The position numbers and the translations under genes were made by a program. This document shows, piece by piece, positions 1,909 through 7,398 of a stretch of DNA of 7,431 nucleotides. Position 1 is the first letter of the stretch, and each line of letters begins with the position of its first letter. Source of the stretch: a virus. Its lineage: Duplodnaviria > Heunggongvirae > Uroviricota > Caudoviricetes. Where the stretch lies: the IMG/VR virus record IMGVR_UViG_2571042053_000009, one strand, 5' to 3'. Below the pieces are notes generated by a model. It was given only the letters and a program-made list of their open reading frames with translations, did no database searches and was not told where the DNA came from.

Positions 1909-2697
1909 ATGGCTTCAAACTGGATAAAGCTCGAGGTTATTACGCCGGATAAGCCGGAAATATTCAGGCTTGCTGAGATTCTGAATATTGATCCAGATGC
2001 CGCATTAGGGAAGGTTATTCGCTTCTGGGCATGGGCGGATCAACAAATGATAGACGGTAATGCAGATTGTAACGCTCGCGGCGTTACAAAAAGTGCAATA
2101 GATCGCATCACTTTTATGGCTGGTTTTGCTGATGCGTTAATTCAGGTTGGATGGCTGGTCGAAAATGACGTTGGGCTTTCTCTACCTAACTTTGAACGTC
2201 ATAACGGAAAAAGCTCTAAAAAACGGGCGGTTACAAACGAGCGAGTTACAAAAATACGCGAACTGAAACGAAAAGGTAACGCTGCCAGCGTTACACAAAC
2301 GGATCAAAAAGCGTTACCAGAGGAAGAGGAAGAGGAAGATATAAATACTGATCTCCCCCTAAATCCCCCTCGCCAAAAACGAGCGTCTAAAAAATTCGAG
2401 CCGGAGGCTATTGAGCTGCCCGATTGGTTGCCGGAAACACTCTGGCATGAGTGGGTCCGGTTCAGACAGGCATTGCGAAAACCGATTCGAACGGAGCAGG
2501 GCGCTAACGGGGCGATACGGGAACTGGAAAAATTCCGTCAGCAGGGTTTTACACCTGAGCAGGTGATTCGACACAGCATCGCCAATGAATACCAGGGCCT
2601 GTTCGCGCCGAAAGGTGTTCGGCCTGAGACGTTGCTCCGACAGGTTAACACCGTCTCGTTGCCGGACAGTGCGATCCCGCCAGGCTTCAGGGGGTAA
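1909..2697 (+). CDS. replication initiation protein, lambda O-like / YdaU-like, with acidic linker, 262 aa
   Basis: AAGGTGA RBS before the ATG. Sits immediately upstream of the DnaC-like gene, as in lambdoid replication modules. Contains internal palindromic repeats and an EEEEEED linker encoded by (AGGAAG)x3 at 2321..2338, recalling the lambda O gene, which contains its own ori. Family assignment is from memory. Confidence 0.8.
   Translation: MASNWIKLEVITPDKPEIFRLAEILNIDPDAALGKVIRFWAWADQQMIDGNADCNARGVTKSAIDRITFMAGFADALIQVGWLVENDVGLSLPNFERHNGKSSKKRAVTNERVTKIRELKRKGNAASVTQTDQKALPEEEEEEDINTDLPLNPPRQKRASKKFEPEAIELPDWLPETLWHEWVRFRQALRKPIRTEQGANGAIRELEKFRQQGFTPEQVIRHSIANEYQGLFAPKGVRPETLLRQVNTVSLPDSAIPPGFRG
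2068..2088. repeat. iteron-like palindrome TGTAACGC-N5-GCGTTACA (copy 2), inside the O-like gene
   Basis: Same 8-bp arms as copy 1 with a different 5-bp spacer (TCGCG). Confidence 0.6.
2277..2295. repeat. iteron-like palindrome GTAACGC-N5-GCGTTAC (copy 3) with nearby half-sites
   Basis: 7-bp arms. Additional GTTACA-type half-sites at about 2227..2237, 2243..2254 and 2311..2317, followed by the (AGGAAG)x3 tract. Confidence 0.55.
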
Positions 2698-2703
2698 CGG
2701 ACC

Positions 2704-3450
2704 ATGAAAAATATTGCGACAGGCGGTGTTCTTGAACGTATCCGTAAGCTGGCTCCGCAGCATGTAACCGCGCCGTACCGGACAGTGGACGAGTGGCGAG
2801 AGTGGCAGCTTGCAGAAGGGCGAAAACGTAGCGAGGAGATCAACCGCCTGAATCGTCAGTTGCGGGTGGAAAAAATTCTGAATCGCTCAGGCATCCAGCC
2901 GTTGCATCGTAAATGCTCGTTTGCAAATTACCAGGTGCAGAACGACGGCCAGCGATACGCGTTGAGTCAGGCGAAATCCATCGCTGATGAAATGATGACC
3001 GGGGGTACAAATTTTGCGTTCAGCGGAAAACCTGGTACCGGGAAGAACCACTTAGCGGCAGCTATCGGAAATCGCCTGCTGAAAGATGGCCAGACAGTGA
3101 TTGTGGTTACTGTGGCTGATGTTATGAGTGCCCTGCATGCCAGCTATGACGACGGACAGTCAGGCGAAAAATTTTTGCGGGAACTGTGCGAAGTGGATCT
3201 GCTGGTTCTTGATGAGATTGGCATTCAGCGCGAGACGAAAAACGAGCAGGTGGTACTGCACCAGATTATTGATCGACGGACAGCGTCGATGCGTAGCGTG
3301 GGAATGCTGACAAATCTGAACTATGAGGCCATGAAAACATTGCTCGGTGAGCGGATTATGGATCGCATGACCATGAACGGCGGACGCTGGGTGAATTTTA
3401 ACTGGGAGAGCTGGCGTCCGAATGTCGTCCAGCCAGGAATTGCGAAGTAA
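2704..3450 (+). CDS. DnaC-like helicase loader (IstB/DnaC AAA+ ATPase), YdaV-like, 248 aa
   Basis: Walker [18 protein letters not shown] and Walker B LLVLDEIG. Length 248 aa and position after the O-like gene match YdaV of Rac-type prophages. Confidence 0.9.
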
Positions 3451-3472
3451 TTTTTACCGGGAGAAAAATTTA

Positions 3473-4234
3473 ATGGAGACTGTTTTTGACGCACTGAAAG
3501 CAATGGGAAAAGCCACATCCATAGAACTTGCTGCGCGACTTGATATCAGTCGTGAAGAGGTACTGAACGAGCTGTGGGAACTGAAAAAAGCTGGTTTTGT
3601 TGATAAAACCGCGTACACCTGGCGCGTGGCTGAAAACAACGTTCAGCAGGAACAGTCAGCGCAGGCAGAACTGCCGGAAGAAACCACCACAGCAACAGTA
3701 GCGAAAATCTCAGAGTGCGATTTAACCGCAACGATTGAACAACGCGGACCACAAACGGCTGATGAGCTGGCTACATTGTTTGATACCACATCACGCAAAG
3801 TGGCTTCAACGCTGGCAATGGCAATCAGCAAAGGTCGTCTGATTAGCGTAAATCAGGGCGGTAAATTTCGTTACTGCATACCGGGCGATAATTTACCAGC
3901 AGAGCCGAAAGCAGCATCGGTAGCGGAAACTGATGGTAAAGCCTTTCCTCAGCCTGCATGTGTTGCGTTACCAGTACAGGAAGCTGCAACACAGGAAGAT
4001 ATTAAAACAGAAACGATGGCGGACATTGTGCAGTCGCTGCCATCGTTTACTGCAACGCGATCTGATGATTTGATTTTGCCATCGCTGCATTTGGCAAACC
4101 GCGAACTGCGTCGGGCGAAAAATCATGTCCAGAAGTGGGAGCGTGTCTGCGCCGCGCTGCGGGAGCTGAATAAACACCGGGATATTTTCAGTTCGATTGC
4201 TGATATTCCGGTTCATTCACCGACAACAAAGTGA
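3473..4234 (+). CDS. hypothetical protein with two winged-helix-like segments, 253 aa
   Basis: Start chosen at ATG 3473 (GGGAGA upstream) rather than the in-frame ATG 3422, which has no SD and would overlap the DnaC-like gene. The N-terminus ([29 protein letters not shown]) and residues around 95-140 both look like wHTH folds. Confidence 0.65.
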
Positions 4235-4249
4235 TCTCCGGAGGTGCTT

Positions 4250-4672
4250 ATGACAAGAGCATTTACACCAGAAGAGCGGAAAAAAATTAAGGGGCTGATC
4301 GTGGAATTCGTACGCCTTAACGGACGAGGCACGATTCGGCAGTTATCGGATGAAATTGGTGTCAGTCATGCGTCTGTCGGTCGTTTATGCATGGAGCTGG
4401 CCGCCAGTGGTGATGTTTACAATTCCGGTTACGGAGTATTCCCGTCTGAGCAGGCGCGCAAGGACTGGCAAAACGCCCGCAAAAAACTCTCAAGGGCAAA
4501 GCTGAAGAAACCATCTGTGGTTGATCCGGACCTTATCTGGCTATTACCAGACGGCGAAATACGCCGCTACGACAGGCGCCTAAACATAATCTGTCGCGAG
4601 TGCCGGAAGAGTGAGGCTATGCAGCGTGTACTGGCTTTCTATCAGGGTAATTTTCAGGAGACGGTACTGTGA
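4250..4672 (+). CDS. hypothetical HTH-containing protein, 140 aa
   Basis: ATG 4250 with GGAGG at 4239..4243; the ORF track used the upstream GTG at 4244. HTH-like segment GTIRQLSDEIGVSHASVGRLCMELAASGDV and a basic C-terminal half. Confidence 0.7.
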   Translation: MTRAFTPEERKKIKGLIVEFVRLNGRGTIRQLSDEIGVSHASVGRLCMELAASGDVYNSGYGVFPSEQARKDWQNARKKLSRAKLKKPSVVDPDLIWLLPDGEIRRYDRRLNIICRECRKSEAMQRVLAFYQGNFQETVL

Positions 4673-4729
4673 GTGAAATTAGCTATCAGGCTTCAATTAC
4701 CGCTGGCATTCGCATCAAAGGAGAGGAGC

Positions 4730-5086
4730 ATGGAAATAAAACCAGAGGATGAGTTAAGCAATATCGTTTTATTTCCGGTAAAAGAGGATGACCCTCGTAA
4801 TCAGGTTAATTTTCTTTATGAGCCATCGGAAAGACCATATTGCCATCACGCCTCTGTTCGGGTTGACGAAAAAGAGCGTCAGGTCCGCTGTAAAATCTGC
4901 GGTGCAGTTGTGGAGCCGTTTGACTGGATGCTCTCTGTGGCGAAAAGAGAAACCAGACTGGCAGATGATGTAAGGCTATTGCGCCAGGAGGAACAGGAAA
5001 GGCGGAAAAATATAGAAAAGTTAATTCAGATTGAGCGTAACGCGAAAGCGCGGATACGCAGGGCGACAAAATCCAGAACTGAATAA
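4730..5086 (+). CDS. hypothetical protein with Cys/His cluster (C-H-H-x13-C-x2-C) and basic coiled-coil tail, 118 aa
   Basis: ATG 4730 preceded by a strong SD (AAGGAGAGGAG, 4718..4728); the ORF-track start at 4673 is a GTG without SD. Possible zinc-ribbon. Confidence 0.65.
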   Translation: MEIKPEDELSNIVLFPVKEDDPRNQVNFLYEPSERPYCHHASVRVDEKERQVRCKICGAVVEPFDWMLSVAKRETRLADDVRLLRQEEQERRKNIEKLIQIERNAKARIRRATKSRTE

Positions 5087-5136
5087 ATAAATTTAGAGCT
5101 GTAAATAAAATCTAATCCTGAACTGGAGGTATATTT

Positions 5137-5349
5137 ATGTTAAATACACAGAAAGCCATTAATGCGGAAAAATATAACGAGTGGGCAAGAAAATTCTCTG
5201 AGCAGATTTTTAAAATTACTGGCGATGAGAATGCGGCAAAAAATGAATTAGAACCGTGGACGCCTGAAGGAGCCGATTCAAATTATTGCTGGAGGGAGGT
5301 TGATCCAGTTGATGCTGCAAATGAAGCTATGAGTTATTACAACGATTAA
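5137..5349 (+). CDS. hypothetical protein, 70 aa
   Basis: GGAGG about 8 nt upstream. AT-rich flanks. Followed by a GNRA-loop hairpin at 5359..5376. Confidence 0.6.
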   Translation: MLNTQKAINAEKYNEWARKFSEQIFKITGDENAAKNELEPWTPEGADSNYCWREVDPVDAANEAMSYYND

Positions 5350-5358
5350 TGTCAGGAG

Positions 5359-5376
5359 GCCGCCCGAAAGGGCGGT
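5359..5376 (+). terminator. stem-loop (CCGCCC-GAAA-GGGCGG), possible terminator or RNA-stability element
   Basis: Perfect 6-bp GC stem with a GAAA tetraloop directly after the 70-aa gene. The downstream T-run is weak, so termination is uncertain. Confidence 0.3.
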
Positions 5377-5461
5377 AATGAATGGTCACATTATTTAGAA
5401 AAAATATCCGCGAAAGAGTAGAACAACAGAATTTCTGTTTCTCATTCTGTTTATCGTGTTG

Positions 5462-5600: not shown

Positions 5601-5864
5601 ATGGCAACTTTGACAAAAAAAGAACGGGCATGGTTGAACGAATTACAGGAAGTTCTTGATCGCTGTCCATCACCGAAAAAAATTGGCTTTTACACCATTG
5701 GCGATAAAAGCATTTACCTGTATGACCTACGCCGCATGGATGAAATCATGGAGGCTCTTGATAATCGTTCGTCGATGGATTGGTGTGTTGCTGTTCATGA
5801 TATGAATGCAGGGTTTGATGAAAAGATTTTGTTCCCCTCATCAGTTGAAAGCACTGCGGGTTAA
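5601..5864 (+). CDS. hypothetical protein, 87 aa
   Basis: ATG 5601 with AAGGA upstream. The ORF-track version starting at 5511 is an unsupported upstream extension. Confidence 0.6.
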   Translation: MATLTKKERAWLNELQEVLDRCPSPKKIGFYTIGDKSIYLYDLRRMDEIMEALDNRSSMDWCVAVHDMNAGFDEKILFPSSVESTAG

Positions 5865-5874
5865 GGAGTAACAC

Positions 5875-6777
5875 ATGACCACTATTACCAAAGAACGTAT
5901 TGAATTGTTCATTAAAAATCCGCTTGAAAACGGGCTTACCCGTGGTGAACAAATGGAACTGGCACGGATTGCGCTGGCATCGCTGGAAGCAGATCCAGTT
6001 AAACGAGTTAACTCAGATCAGATGCGCCGAGTCTGCTTAGAAGCTAATCGCCATTTAGATAAATATGACGCGATGGCGAAAGAGGTAAATAAGTTGCTTG
6101 GACGCATCGCCCCGCCAGCGCCGGTAGTGCCGGAAGAAGCAACTCCGGAAAACGTAGAAATGCTCTCTGGCTATGTTTCCACGTACAAATTAACCGATAG
6201 CGAGCGCGATATTGCTGCCGAAATATGGAACGCCTGCCGCACCGCCATGCTTCAGTCCGGAAACTTTCGGGAAAGCAAGAATTCGTCAACCAATAATTTT
6301 CGGGAAATCCCGGAAGCGTCAACCAGCTCTCCGGTAACTCCGGCTCTTCTGCCTGGTGGTTTCACCATTGAGGAGGCGAAGGAATTACATGAAGACCTGG
6401 TACGCAGCCACATAAGCAAGGCCTTAAGTGGCGAAAAGATGAAAAAGAAAGATCGCGATGCTGATTTGCGCTGGATTCATGGCGTTATAGTTCAGGCAGC
6501 GTGGTTTGTAAAAGCATCACTGGAGCAGAATGCACTATCGGGCAACTATCCGGTAACTCCGGATAGTTGGATAAGCTGTAGTGAGCGAATGCCGGATACC
6601 AAAACAGCCGTTCTTGTTGCCAGGGAGTTTGACAGGAAAGGTGACTGGCGAATGAAATGGGCTACTTACATCCCGGGGCATCCTGACGCTAATGATGGGT
6701 GGATAATTCCTGGTGCGTCGTGGAAACCGTCACACTGGATGCCGCTACCAGAACCGCCGCAGGAGGTGCGCCAATGA
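5875..6777 (+). CDS. phage protein with DUF551-like C-terminal domain, 300 aa
   Basis: Strong RBS AAGGAG. The C-terminal segment (MPDTKTAVLVAREFDRKGDWR...WMPLPEPP) resembles the DUF551 domain common in enterobacterial prophage proteins (recalled, not verified). Confidence 0.75.
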   Translation: MTTITKERIELFIKNPLENGLTRGEQMELARIALASLEADPVKRVNSDQMRRVCLEANRHLDKYDAMAKEVNKLLGRIAPPAPVVPEEATPENVEMLSGYVSTYKLTDSERDIAAEIWNACRTAMLQSGNFRESKNSSTNNFREIPEASTSSPVTPALLPGGFTIEEAKELHEDLVRSHISKALSGEKMKKKDRDADLRWIHGVIVQAAWFVKASLEQNALSGNYPVTPDSWISCSERMPDTKTAVLVAREFDRKGDWRMKWATYIPGHPDANDGWIIPGASWKPSHWMPLPEPPQEVRQ

Positions 6778-7027: not shown

Positions 7028-7085
7028 GGTAAAAACGGTTTGCGGTAAAGCGAGAGTTAAGTAGAATTGCTGCGGGTGCTTGAGG

Positions 7086-7121
7086 CTGTCTGCCTCGGGC
7101 ATGCCACCGTAAGGCAGACAG
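7086..7121 (+). promoter_or_regulatory. structured element in the hok leader: 10-bp inverted repeat enclosing the GGCATGCC palindrome
   Basis: CTGTCTGCCT (7086..7095) pairs with AGGCAGACAG (7112..7121). hok-family mRNAs are known to rely on extensive 5' secondary structure; assigning this to a named element is inference. Confidence 0.3.
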
Positions 7122-7242
7122 AGAAAAGCCCCAGTTAACATTACGCGTCCTGCAAGACGCCTAACATTAATCTGAGGCCAATTTCATGCTAGACACATGT
7201 AGGTTAGCCTCTTACGTGCCGAAAGGCAAGGAGAAGCAGGCT

Positions 7243-7398
7243 ATGAAGCAGCAAAAGGCGATGTTAATCGCCCTGATCGTCATCTGTTTAACCGTCATAG
7301 TGACGGCACTGGTAACGAGGAAAGACCTCTGCGAGGTACGAATCCGAACCGGCCAGACGGAGGTCGCTGTCTTCACAGCTTACGAACCTGAGGAGTAA
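7243..7398 (+). CDS. hokD: Hok/Gef-family type I toxin, 51 aa
   Basis: Translation MKQQKAMLIALIVICLTVIVTALVTRKDLCEVRIRTGQTEVAVFTAYEPEE matches my recollection of HokD (RelF): TM helix plus conserved RKxLCE motif. An in-frame upstream ATG at 7186 gives the 70-codon ORF in the track; this may be a mok-like leader frame. Confidence 0.85.
   Translation: MKQQKAMLIALIVICLTVIVTALVTRKDLCEVRIRTGQTEVAVFTAYEPEE

Follow-up and report, generated by a model that had tools for sequence, protein, structure and literature searches.

Four catalogued genes behind the replication module of a Rac-like Escherichia coli prophage, among them a remote homologue of lambda Ren

The window analysed here is a 7,431-nucleotide stretch of viral DNA (Caudoviricetes; IMG/VR record IMGVR_UViG_2571042053_000009) from a lambdoid prophage of the Rac-like kind. 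A first-pass annotation, made from the sequence alone, had described four genes there, downstream of a DnaC-like gene; this location is correct and lies in the early-right operon. We refer to the four genes as G1 to G4. The features of the locus are the following:

1909-2697, + strand: YdaU-like initiator gene, phrog_2509, replication module 5' of G1
2704-3450, + strand: ydaV, DnaC-like helicase loader gene, NCBIfam PRK12377 (506 bits)
3473-4234, + strand: G1, 253 aa, Pfam DUF1627 / YdaW family, phrog_630
4250-4672, + strand: G2, 140 aa, Pfam DUF977 'LygF', phrog_142, Ren-like
4730-5086, + strand: G3, 118 aa, phrog_1621, zinc ribbon and long helix
5137-5349, + strand: G4, 70 aa, phrog_4659, small acidic protein
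5604-5864: 86-aa ORF, phrog_1714, between the block and the DUF551 gene

The coordinates and sizes of the four same-strand ORFs were confirmed exactly. Each is preceded at 5-9 nt by a ribosome binding site of the GGAG type, and RefSeq NZ_CP157170 (Rac-like prophage, E. coli 99E2750) annotates the same four CDS at 100% identity. Pairwise dN/dS values against homologues are low (G1 0.18-0.32; G2 0.15-0.29; G3 0.00-0.11; G4 0.34-0.44), and every one of the genes has a strong profile match in Pfam or PHROG. Judged by these sequence comparisons, G1 to G4 are thus real genes under purifying selection and not chance ORFs. The gaps between loader and G1, G1 and G2, G2 and G3, and G3 and G4 are 22, 15, 57 and 50 nt, so that the earlier description as tightly spaced suits G1-G2 and applies less well to G2-G3-G4. 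The block is free of predicted + strand promoters, a promoter and terminator scan of the block gave nothing above chance, and Rfam detected no RNA family in it, only sok further downstream. The short gaps and the lack of a predicted + strand promoter suggest an operon structure. The block had also been placed directly before the DUF551 gene, which is incorrect, since a frameshifted DUF4014 remnant and the 86-aa ORF intervene.

The four proteins had been considered impossible to place in any family. Contrary to this view, they belong to DUF1627/YdaW, DUF977/LygF/PHROG 142, PHROG 1621 and PHROG 4659, respectively. As genes of Rac-like E. coli prophages they are commonplace and already listed in RefSeq, Pfam and PHROGs, and they do not make up a new four-gene system. 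The expectation of DNA-binding folds and a Cys/His cluster was borne out by winged helices in G1 and G2 and a zinc ribbon in G3. None of the four matched NinB, NinG or other Nin families in Pfam, PHROG or NCBIfam; NCBIfam yielded sub-threshold HTH matches only, and PDB sequence searches returned no significant relatives.

G1 matches Pfam DUF1627 (PF07789) over profile positions 1-153 of 155 (E 5.8e-92; 306 bits, gathering cutoff 28.1 bits) and phrog_630 (E 3e-124). The protein is laid out as an HTH (residues 1-48), a disordered linker, a winged helix (80-137), a second disordered linker and a C-terminal module (205-242) composed of a conserved 'IPxFT' motif and a helix, and this architecture is retained in relatives down to 21% identity. 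Two helix-turn-helix regions, in agreement with the proposed double winged-helix protein, were found by Pfam (HTH_20, residues 4-44; FeoC-like, 84-130). In the AlphaFold model the winged helix at 80-137 reaches a pLDDT of ~85 within a whole-protein model of low confidence (pLDDT 61, pTM 0.28). Foldseek searches of this model against PDB and BFVD returned generic winged-helix proteins only. Matches to ScpB and a 'replisome organizer' were discarded (rmsd 16-30 Å), as was a beta-clamp-binding motif, 'QSLPSF', whose Gln varies within the family.

Residues 1-151 of G1 are 95% identical to YdaW (b1361) of the K-12 Rac prophage, and both genes lie 22 nt 3' of ydaV. Past residue 151 K-12 YdaW departs from G1; it stops at 186 aa and lacks the IPxFT-helix module. 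Moreover, ydaW is followed by rzpR/trkG in K-12, without a DUF977 gene, whereas G1 is followed by G2. From this comparison we regard G1 as the full-length form of Rac YdaW and the K-12 protein as a deletion remnant; the reported K-12 ydaW phenotypes therefore apply to a truncated protein. One of them is that K-12 ydaW was scored as a 'blocker' of RcaT, the toxin of retron-Sen2, when overexpressed (bioRxiv 10.1101/2020.06.22.160242; PMC11951105). This is a hit from a high-throughput overexpression screen, obtained with the truncated K-12 protein.

G2 is basic (pI 9.8) and matches Pfam DUF977 (PF06163) over its full length (residues 1-136 on profile positions 1-134 of 134; E 1.5e-27; 96.8 bits, gathering cutoff 22.1 bits). 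Its N-terminal winged helix varies between alleles in helices 2-3; a conserved middle follows, and the C-terminus carries the motif NIICRECRKSEAMQRVLAFY, which is shared with lambda Ren; in both proteins the motif reads ECRxSxAMxRVLAxY. The N-terminal winged helix is shared as well, and both proteins match PHROG 142, 'Ren-like exclusion protein', over their full length (E 1.1e-42 for G2, 1.6e-41 for lambda Ren). G2 also occupies the genome place of lambda ren, where the replication module ends and variable nin-type genes have yet to begin. The differences are nevertheless considerable. A BLASTP alignment of the two covers 20 C-terminal residues only (60% identity, E 4e-7), lambda Ren falls below Pfam DUF977 scoring whereas G2 matches, and the 140 aa of G2, against 96 aa in lambda Ren, include a conserved insert of ~45 residues (SGYGLFPSEQARKDWQNARKKLSRAK...DPDLIW.LPDGEIRRYD) that lambda Ren lacks. 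In lambda ren overlaps P, whereas here G1 is interposed between loader and G2, and the loader is of the DnaC type instead of the P type. G2 is homologous to lambda Ren, but remotely so outside the last 20 residues. The first-pass annotation had held that clear matches to conserved lambdoid housekeeping genes of the nin region would speak against its accessory-cargo reading, and the tie of G1 and G2 to the replication module, described below, comes close to this case. Since the window lacks rexAB genes, a role confined to Rex would be an incomplete explanation.

Among its nearer relatives, G2 is 70-89% identical to LygF-annotated genes of Rac-SA53, mEp460, 75/02 Stx and others. The name LygF is used in Salmonella Enteritidis and in Rac-like phages; a literature search on it found no functional paper, so that the name implies no established function, and a search on 'Ren' was likewise uninformative. 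Differences among G2 alleles are almost confined to HTH helices 2-3, and the allele in the window ('type A') is a rarer one. A link of the G2 allele to the initiator allele or to palindromes was unsupported in the few loci compared: one of them (L009) combines a type A G2 with another initiator N-terminus and lacks the palindromes. We also rejected a marginal phmmer match to the PKZ Z-alpha domain (E 0.006). In the Z-alpha domains of ADAR1 and PKZ, Z-DNA is contacted by two conserved residues of the recognition helix, an Asn and a Tyr. These contact residues are not kept in G2, where the alignment (KSTVNRHLYNL / HASVGRLCMEL) has Gly at the Asn and Met at the Tyr position; in type B, the more frequent allele, they are Ser and Arg. 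A scan of genome contigs with G2 found copies only in Escherichia and Shigella, apart from a few matches in Collinsella, Bacillota and Veillonella MAGs (71-74% identical to G2), which we take as misbinned enterobacterial prophage DNA.

G3 matches phrog_1621 (E 1.5e-56); a zinc ribbon of the CxH...CxxC pattern leads into a single long helix that is conserved. In an alignment of 49 Enterobacterales sequences (45-97% identity) the ligands C38, H40, C54 and C57 are invariant, which vindicates the description as a Cys/His-cluster protein, and the basic helix is highly conserved (LRxEExQRRxNIEKLIQIERNAKARIRRA). The AlphaFold model (pLDDT 74) has beta-hairpins at 43-54 and a single helix at 63-117. 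Among PDB structures Foldseek places it closest to 1pft, the N-terminal zinc ribbon of TFIIB (probability 0.93, E 0.22, 27 columns), and the score against the TFIIB zinc-ribbon Pfam PF08271 is 21.5 bits, below the 29-bit cutoff. As in TFIIB and ribosomal S27e ribbons, the four zinc ligands sit in two beta-hairpin knuckles, whereas the extra conserved 55-residue helix is absent from ribbons of this type. The likeness is a structurally local fold resemblance only. G4, with a pI of 4.4, matches phrog_4659 (E 3e-48) and occurs in deposited phage genomes only directly 3' of G3 (8/8 records). G3 itself is also found after Ead/Ea22-like genes in ArgO145 and Tyrion, and between NinG and Q in a Klebsiella phage. 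Fusions of G3 to Ead/Ea22, DUF977, DUF1627 or DUF1133 were rejected as 'Rosetta stone' evidence, since each is a one-off chimera formed at a mosaic junction.

We then asked how far the four genes travel together. At 80% coverage or more, all four occur jointly in 291 of 5426 complete E. coli genomes, G1 with G2 in 1037 and G3 with G4 in 475; any match to G1-G2 is found in 4419 genomes (81%), often in several copies, and any match to G3-G4 in 1818. In 80 related IMG/VR loci, the 5' neighbour of G2 was G1 (43 loci), a single-gene replicator (24) or a DnaC-like loader (9), and the remaining 4 lay at contig edges, so that G2 stands behind a replication module or G1 in 76/76 assessable cases. The position is the same in the annotated prophages and phages EC29, SRY206, ST131, mEp460 and 75/02 Stx despite their different replicators. 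G1 behaves in a similar manner: its 5' neighbour in the 78 viral loci that have an upstream ORF was DnaC-like in 40, lambda-P-like in 21 (matching Pfam Phage_lambda_P at 5e-16) and an O-like initiator in 14, together 75/78. On the 3' side of G2, by contrast, the same 80 loci carry G3 (26), G4 (6), Ead-like genes (5), DUF4406 (2) or other genes (37), the last including an ORF that reads as a methyltransferase-like gene. Each of the two genes can be missing, as in the order ydaU-ydaV-G2 of Shigella and E. coli loci (L007-L010) or in PPompW phages with G1 and without G2. G1 and G2 are consequently each dispensable to the arrangement, and what had been called a four-gene block is a mosaic of independently assorting genes and not a unit. 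G1 and G2 nonetheless keep a fixed position where the replication module ends, and are not free cargo. The proposed variable accessory slot accordingly holds for G3 and G4, with the varied gene after G2, and fails for G1 and G2.

These distributions bear directly on the suggestion that G1 to G4 form one cassette for lysogen-protecting defence or multi-component anti-defence in a nin-like slot. The same strand, the close spacing and a region of lambdoid phages known for accessory genes would fit, but the whole block is present in 291 of the genomes against 4419 with part of G1-G2, arrangements without G1, without G2 or without G4 are all common, and DUF4406 and Ead-like genes separate G2 from G3 in many strains. 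The defence hint of the first-pass annotation found no backing either. A search of all nine window proteins against PADLOC-DB v2 gave nothing meaningful for G1 to G4: the best matches, of generic winged-helix parts to Csa3/CARF CRISPR-associated regulators, are weak and sub-significant (E 2.5e-4 or higher, no more than 19 bits), and G4 had none. Expression from a repressed prophage is unexpected, because no + strand promoter is predicted in the block. We consider such a cassette extremely improbable.

The reading we prefer, which we hold to be about evenly balanced between right and wrong, is that G1 and G2 form a Ren-type tail of the replication module and that G3 and G4 are swappable cargo. 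G1 and G2 would then be an optional accessory tail of the initiator/helicase-loader module, transcribed with it from the cro-side promoter, and would therefore act in lytic development and not in the lysogen. As a small winged-helix protein of the Ren type, G2 may act on or near the phage replication-initiation complex, such that the phage could replicate without triggering, or despite, abortive-infection sensors of the Rex type, and partner or DNA specificity would reside in the allelic recognition helix of G2. In lambda, ren mutants are reported to be sensitive to Rex, their suppressors mapping to O and P, and two-hybrid assays showed binding of RexA and RexB to both Ren and O (bioRxiv 10.1101/2021.04.19.439022 supplement). 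The ren gene is also reported to accompany initiator/helicase-loader modules. G1 might be a second adaptor of the same kind, binding DNA, the replisome or a toxin partner. The RcaT blocker hit of K-12 ydaW also fits this reading. G3 and G4 would represent interchangeable nin/ea-type cargo that happens to follow G2 in this prophage, with a likely role in host takeover or counter-defence through protein or nucleic-acid binding. The conserved position could, however, stem from recombination-module boundaries instead of function.

Two further explanations concern G1 and G2 only. If they were sequence-specific transcription regulators of later phage genes or of host genes, for example in biofilm formation, and unlinked to replication, this would agree with the MarR/ArsR-type winged-helix domains in both, with variation among G2 alleles almost only in helices 2-3, as in immunity-type regulators, with the lowered early biofilm formation of a K-12 ydaW deletion (PMC3105296) and with the listing of YdaW among uncharacterised E. 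coli transcription factors (PMC9308461). A strict place after three unrelated kinds of replication genes is unexpected if the targets are distant, though, and lambda Ren genetics, as cited above, indicates O and P. In addition, no repeated candidate operator was found within or beside the block, and the only strong palindromes of the window, three copies of GTAACGC-N5-GCGTTAC at 1877-2294, lie inside and just upstream of the initiator gene. We judge this explanation unlikely. A comparably low probability attaches to pure protein-binding counter-defence, in which G1 and G2 would directly neutralise toxin effectors or sensors, RcaT and RexA/B being examples, and their position would reflect timing only. 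The RcaT blocker hit and the interaction of Ren with RexA and RexB point in this direction; the long disordered linkers and conserved C-terminal helix in the G1 model resemble a partner-binding element, and the allelic diversity of G2 is compatible with an arms race. Against it stand dN/dS values far under 1 along both genes, ren suppressors that map to O and P and not to rex, and most G2-bearing prophages not being known to encounter Rex. The blocker screen also yielded chaperones and proteases, i.e., unspecific rescuers.

A broader version of the replication-linked reading, which we regard as distinctly doubtful, would make DUF1627 and DUF977 proteins a general class of winged-helix 'replication-complex cloaks', which temperate phages of enterobacteria add to replication modules of any type, DnaC-type, lambda-P-type or single-protein. 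Replication intermediates would be hidden or modified so that abortive-infection sensors (Rex, retron toxins and others) stay untriggered, the recognition helix of G2 would follow the sensor or the origin, and G3-G4 would be one among alternative counter-defence cargos at the same junction.

G1 and G2 rank among the commonest E. coli prophage genes, and the practical weight of the locus is small. G2 is to be read as a Ren homologue and not as an orphan. Since G1 and G2 follow replication modules of any type, the 45-year-old question of what Ren does becomes approachable in a second family that is far more widespread. Variable cargo starts just past the 3' end of G2, and this boundary is the place where genuine defence or anti-defence genes of Rac-like prophages should be sought.

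The window corresponds to part of a Rac-like lambdoid E. coli prophage, namely its immunity, replication and early-right region. NZ_CP157170 (strain 99E2750) matches positions 3400-5400 with 100% identity; there, the counterpart is flanked by intR/xisR/recET/kil on one side and by lysis and packaging genes on the other. We call the four genes behind the DnaC-like loader G1 to G4; each has a GGAG-type ribosome-binding site.

Gene order in the window
First in order, plus strand: cro/YdaS-like gene
Between the cro/YdaS-like gene and the initiator, plus strand: YdaT (CII-like)
1909-2697, plus strand: YdaU-like initiator
2704-3450, plus strand: YdaV, DnaC-like loader
3473-4234, plus strand: G1 (YdaW, DUF1627)
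4250-4672, plus strand: G2 (DUF977)
4730-5086, plus strand: G3 (phrog_1621)
5137-5349, plus strand: G4 (phrog_4659)
Next after G4, plus strand: frameshifted DUF4014 remnant
Between the DUF4014 remnant and the DUF551 gene, plus strand: 86-aa ORF
5875-6777 (14476-15375 in comparison locus L001), plus strand: DUF551 gene, 300-aa ORF
7074-7398, last in plus-strand order: complete type I toxin-antitoxin locus hok/sok

Rfam matched sok at 7074-7248 (118 bits), and the Hok ORF at 7243-7398, named hokD in RefSeq, matched Pfam HOK_GEF (E 1e-23). The window and NZ_CP157170 have the same uninterrupted 300-aa DUF551 ORF, although RefSeq splits this part of NZ_CP157170 into several partial or pseudogene fragments and a 112-aa DUF551 CDS. 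A 19-nt palindrome, GTAACGC-N5-GCGTTAC, occurs three times around the initiator (1877-1895, 2069-2087 and 2276-2294; spacing 192 and 207 bp; chance expectation 0.01 copies), once 14 nt upstream of the YdaU-like start and twice within the gene. Among the fetched loci it was found only in those with the same initiator N-terminal allele (L001, L007, L008). The palindromes may act as origin sites, as binding sites for the initiator or as an operator.

The first-pass annotation had placed the four ORFs correctly, in exact agreement with ours, and all coincide with RefSeq CDS. G1-G4 evolve as proteins; dN/dS against homologues was 0.18-0.32 for G1, 0.15-0.29 for G2, 0.00-0.11 for G3 and 0.34-0.44 for G4. 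A consensus scan predicted no plus-strand promoter inside the block and just one plus-strand terminator-like hairpin, inside G2; its total did not exceed that in shuffled sequences. G1-G4 therefore look like the continuation of the operon that begins at the cro-like gene. Ten nt past the G4 stop codon lies a GC-rich stem-loop (CCGCCC-GAAA-GGGCGG, 5359-5376) that lacks a T-run and was not called by the terminator scan. Since it coincides with a GC drop to about 39% and the start of the DUF4014 remnant, it may mark the border between modules or help stabilise the RNA. Only one stop codon, TGA at 4670-4672, lies between the in-frame G2 and G3, and the ORF from GTG 4673 continues into G3, an arrangement roughly estimated at 1 in 8 by chance. 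Fusions of G3 with DUF977, DUF1627, Ead/Ea22 or DUF1133 sequence are rare among database proteins, and all are singleton chimeras.

For each of G1 and G2, 80 diverse viral loci were fetched and the adjoining genes classified. Immediately upstream of G1 we found a DnaC-like loader in 40/78 loci, a lambda-P-like loader in 21/78 and an O-like initiator in 14/78. All 76 assessable loci had G1 (43), a single-protein replicator (24) or a DnaC-like loader (9) upstream of G2. Downstream of G2 the neighbours were G3 (26), G4 (6), an Ead-like gene (5), DUF4406 (2) and others (37). From these counts both genes behave like lambda ren, which is encoded directly after O and P: they are optional, yet stay tied to the replication module's 3' end, irrespective of module type. 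Past G2 the variable cargo starts. The more distant DUF1627 loci carry directly downstream, instead of DUF977, a conserved 78-aa Cys-rich protein (CPTC...CPYNHH; L045 3715-3951 and 42 other viral loci). This protein, which has no match in Pfam or PHROG, is a putative small zinc-binding protein that may replace Ren-like or G3-like genes there.

The block is assembled as a mosaic. We searched 5426 complete E. coli genomes, separating matches that cover at least 80% from any match. All four genes (3400-5400) were covered in 291 genomes (any match, 4446), G1+G2 in 1037 (any match, 4419; median 2 and up to 8 places per genome) and G3+G4 in 475 (any match, 1818). The arrangements include ydaV-G1-G2 (window, Rac-SA53, 75/02 Stx), ydaV-G2-G3 without G1 (L007-L010), a truncated loader followed by G1 without G2 (PPompW phages) and a single-gene replicator followed by G2 (EC29, SRY206, ST131, mEp460). 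Stx2a phage ArgO145 carries G3-G4 in its early-left operon, and a Klebsiella phage has G3 flanked by NinG and Q. Many EHEC and ST131 prophages (e.g., L003 4770-5524, L021 3170-3998) have DUF4406 and Ead-like genes between G2 and G3; the former is nucleoside 2-deoxyribosyltransferase-like (phrog_355), and the latter (Ead/Ea22-like) is labelled 'RseB domain-containing' in RefSeq. Against one O26-type prophage, identity jumps from gene to gene (ydaV 93%, G1 92%, G2 70%, G3 99%, G4 97%). We assign with high confidence G1/G2 to the replication tail and G3/G4 to swappable modules.

G1 matches Pfam DUF1627 over its full length (306 bits) and belongs to phrog_630. Over 151 residues it shares 95% identity with K-12 Rac prophage YdaW, which differs in being a deletion remnant without the C-terminal third. 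The family is small (176 clusters at 50% identity among 1.84 billion representatives), and relatives with as little as 21% identity retain the whole architecture, with both winged helices, an 'IPxFT' motif and a C-terminal 'EIRRTK...LE..R' helix conserved. An AlphaFold model from a shallow alignment (mean pLDDT 61) predicts a helical HTH (1-48), a winged helix (80-137, well predicted at pLDDT about 85), two long disordered linkers and a C-terminal helix (205-242). Fold searches returned nothing beyond generic ArsR/MarR/FeoC-type winged helices.

G2 matches Pfam DUF977 over its full length (96.8 bits), and many phage records label such proteins 'LygF'. It falls into phrog_142, 'Ren-like exclusion protein', which lambda Ren matches over its whole length (1.6e-41). 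Both share a C-terminal motif (NIICRECRKSEAMQRVLAFY / NLVFKECRQSAAMKRVLAVY, 60% identity, E 4e-7), but Ren, unlike G2, scores too low for a DUF977 match and lacks a conserved insert of about 45 residues. G2 and Ren are therefore only distantly related, G2 being the longer. Variation in DUF977 lies almost entirely within residues 27-50 (HTH helices two and three; window 4328-4399), outside of which conservation exceeds 90%. At least three alleles occur: type A (IRQLSDEIGVSHASVGRLCMEL, G2 of the window), type B (LRQLEAKTGATRYLMSVLAREL, most copies) and type C (FRQLATETGVSKTAVRRLSREL, phage 75/02 Stx). In the few loci compared, the allele did not track G1 presence or initiator allele. A Z-alpha assignment of G2 was rejected; the PKZ match is marginal (E 0.006) and lacks the Z-DNA-contacting Asn and Tyr.

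G3 homologues occur in temperate phages and prophages of Escherichia, Klebsiella, Kluyvera, Salmonella, Serratia, Erwinia, Yersinia, Enterobacter, Hafnia, Providencia and Morganella. C38, H40, C54 and C57 are invariant and the C-terminal helix 'LRxEExQRRxNIEKLIQIERNAKARIRRA' nearly so. The model (pLDDT 74) predicts a zinc ribbon of two hairpins after a disordered N-terminus, then a single 55-residue helix; its sole structural match, a local one, is the TFIIB N-terminal ribbon. G4 is acidic (70 aa, pI 4.4), is confined to E. coli lambdoid and Stx phages, and always stands directly behind G3 in deposited phage genomes; G3 without G4 is frequent. Both are swappable early genes, and the zinc ribbon with basic coiled helix of G3 and the small acidic G4 suggest putative nucleic-acid or host-protein binding.

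The first-pass annotation had described a four-gene block in a nin-like slot where host-benefit, anti-defence or defence cargo tends to sit. A single four-gene defence or anti-defence cassette is contradicted by the independent assortment of the genes, the absence of meaningful PADLOC matches and the lack of an own promoter in the consensus scan. Both winged-helix proteins, G1 and G2, are encoded next to the replication genes and are probably expressed together with them; G2 is a Ren homologue. According to a preprint supplement (Thomason et al., bioRxiv 10.1101/2021.04.19.439022), every initiator/helicase-loader module is accompanied by ren (citing Weigel and Seitz 2006), and two-hybrid assays show interaction of RexA and RexB with Ren and O. 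The same supplement, citing Toothman and Herskowitz (1980), describes poor growth of lambda ren mutants on Rex+ lysogens and places the suppressors in O and P. In our reading, G1 and G2 would act at or next to the phage replication-initiation complex in the lytic phase. If G2 works as Ren does, it would prevent Rex-type sensors from aborting phage replication, and G1 could be a second adaptor, with two winged helices on DNA and the C-terminal helix on a partner. We hold this Ren-like mechanism with modest confidence.

Conventional transcription factors are a possible alternative for G1/G2, in line with G2's allelic recognition helix and with reduced early biofilm formation upon ydaW deletion (PMC3105296); this leaves unexplained why both are strictly linked to three unrelated types of replication gene. 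A genome-wide screen also listed overexpressed ydaW as one of several prophage 'blockers' of RcaT, the retron-Sen2 toxin, as reported in a preprint (bioRxiv 10.1101/2020.06.22.160242) and restated in PMC11951105. This is weak evidence, consistent with a counter-abortive-infection theme, and both ydaW phenotypes are indirect with respect to function. A role of G1/G2 as pure protein-binding counter-defence factors overlaps with the Ren-like mechanism and is computationally inseparable from it.

The proteins themselves are already known. The first-pass annotation could place none of them in a characterised family, yet Pfam DUF1627 and DUF977 and PHROGs 630, 142, 1621 and 4659 cover G1-G4, whose sequences are identical to RefSeq proteins, and ren-like genes behind replication modules were noted previously in the literature. 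The sole additions made here are modest: a positional rule for DUF1627, now backed by counts, and the allelic nature of the DUF977 HTH.
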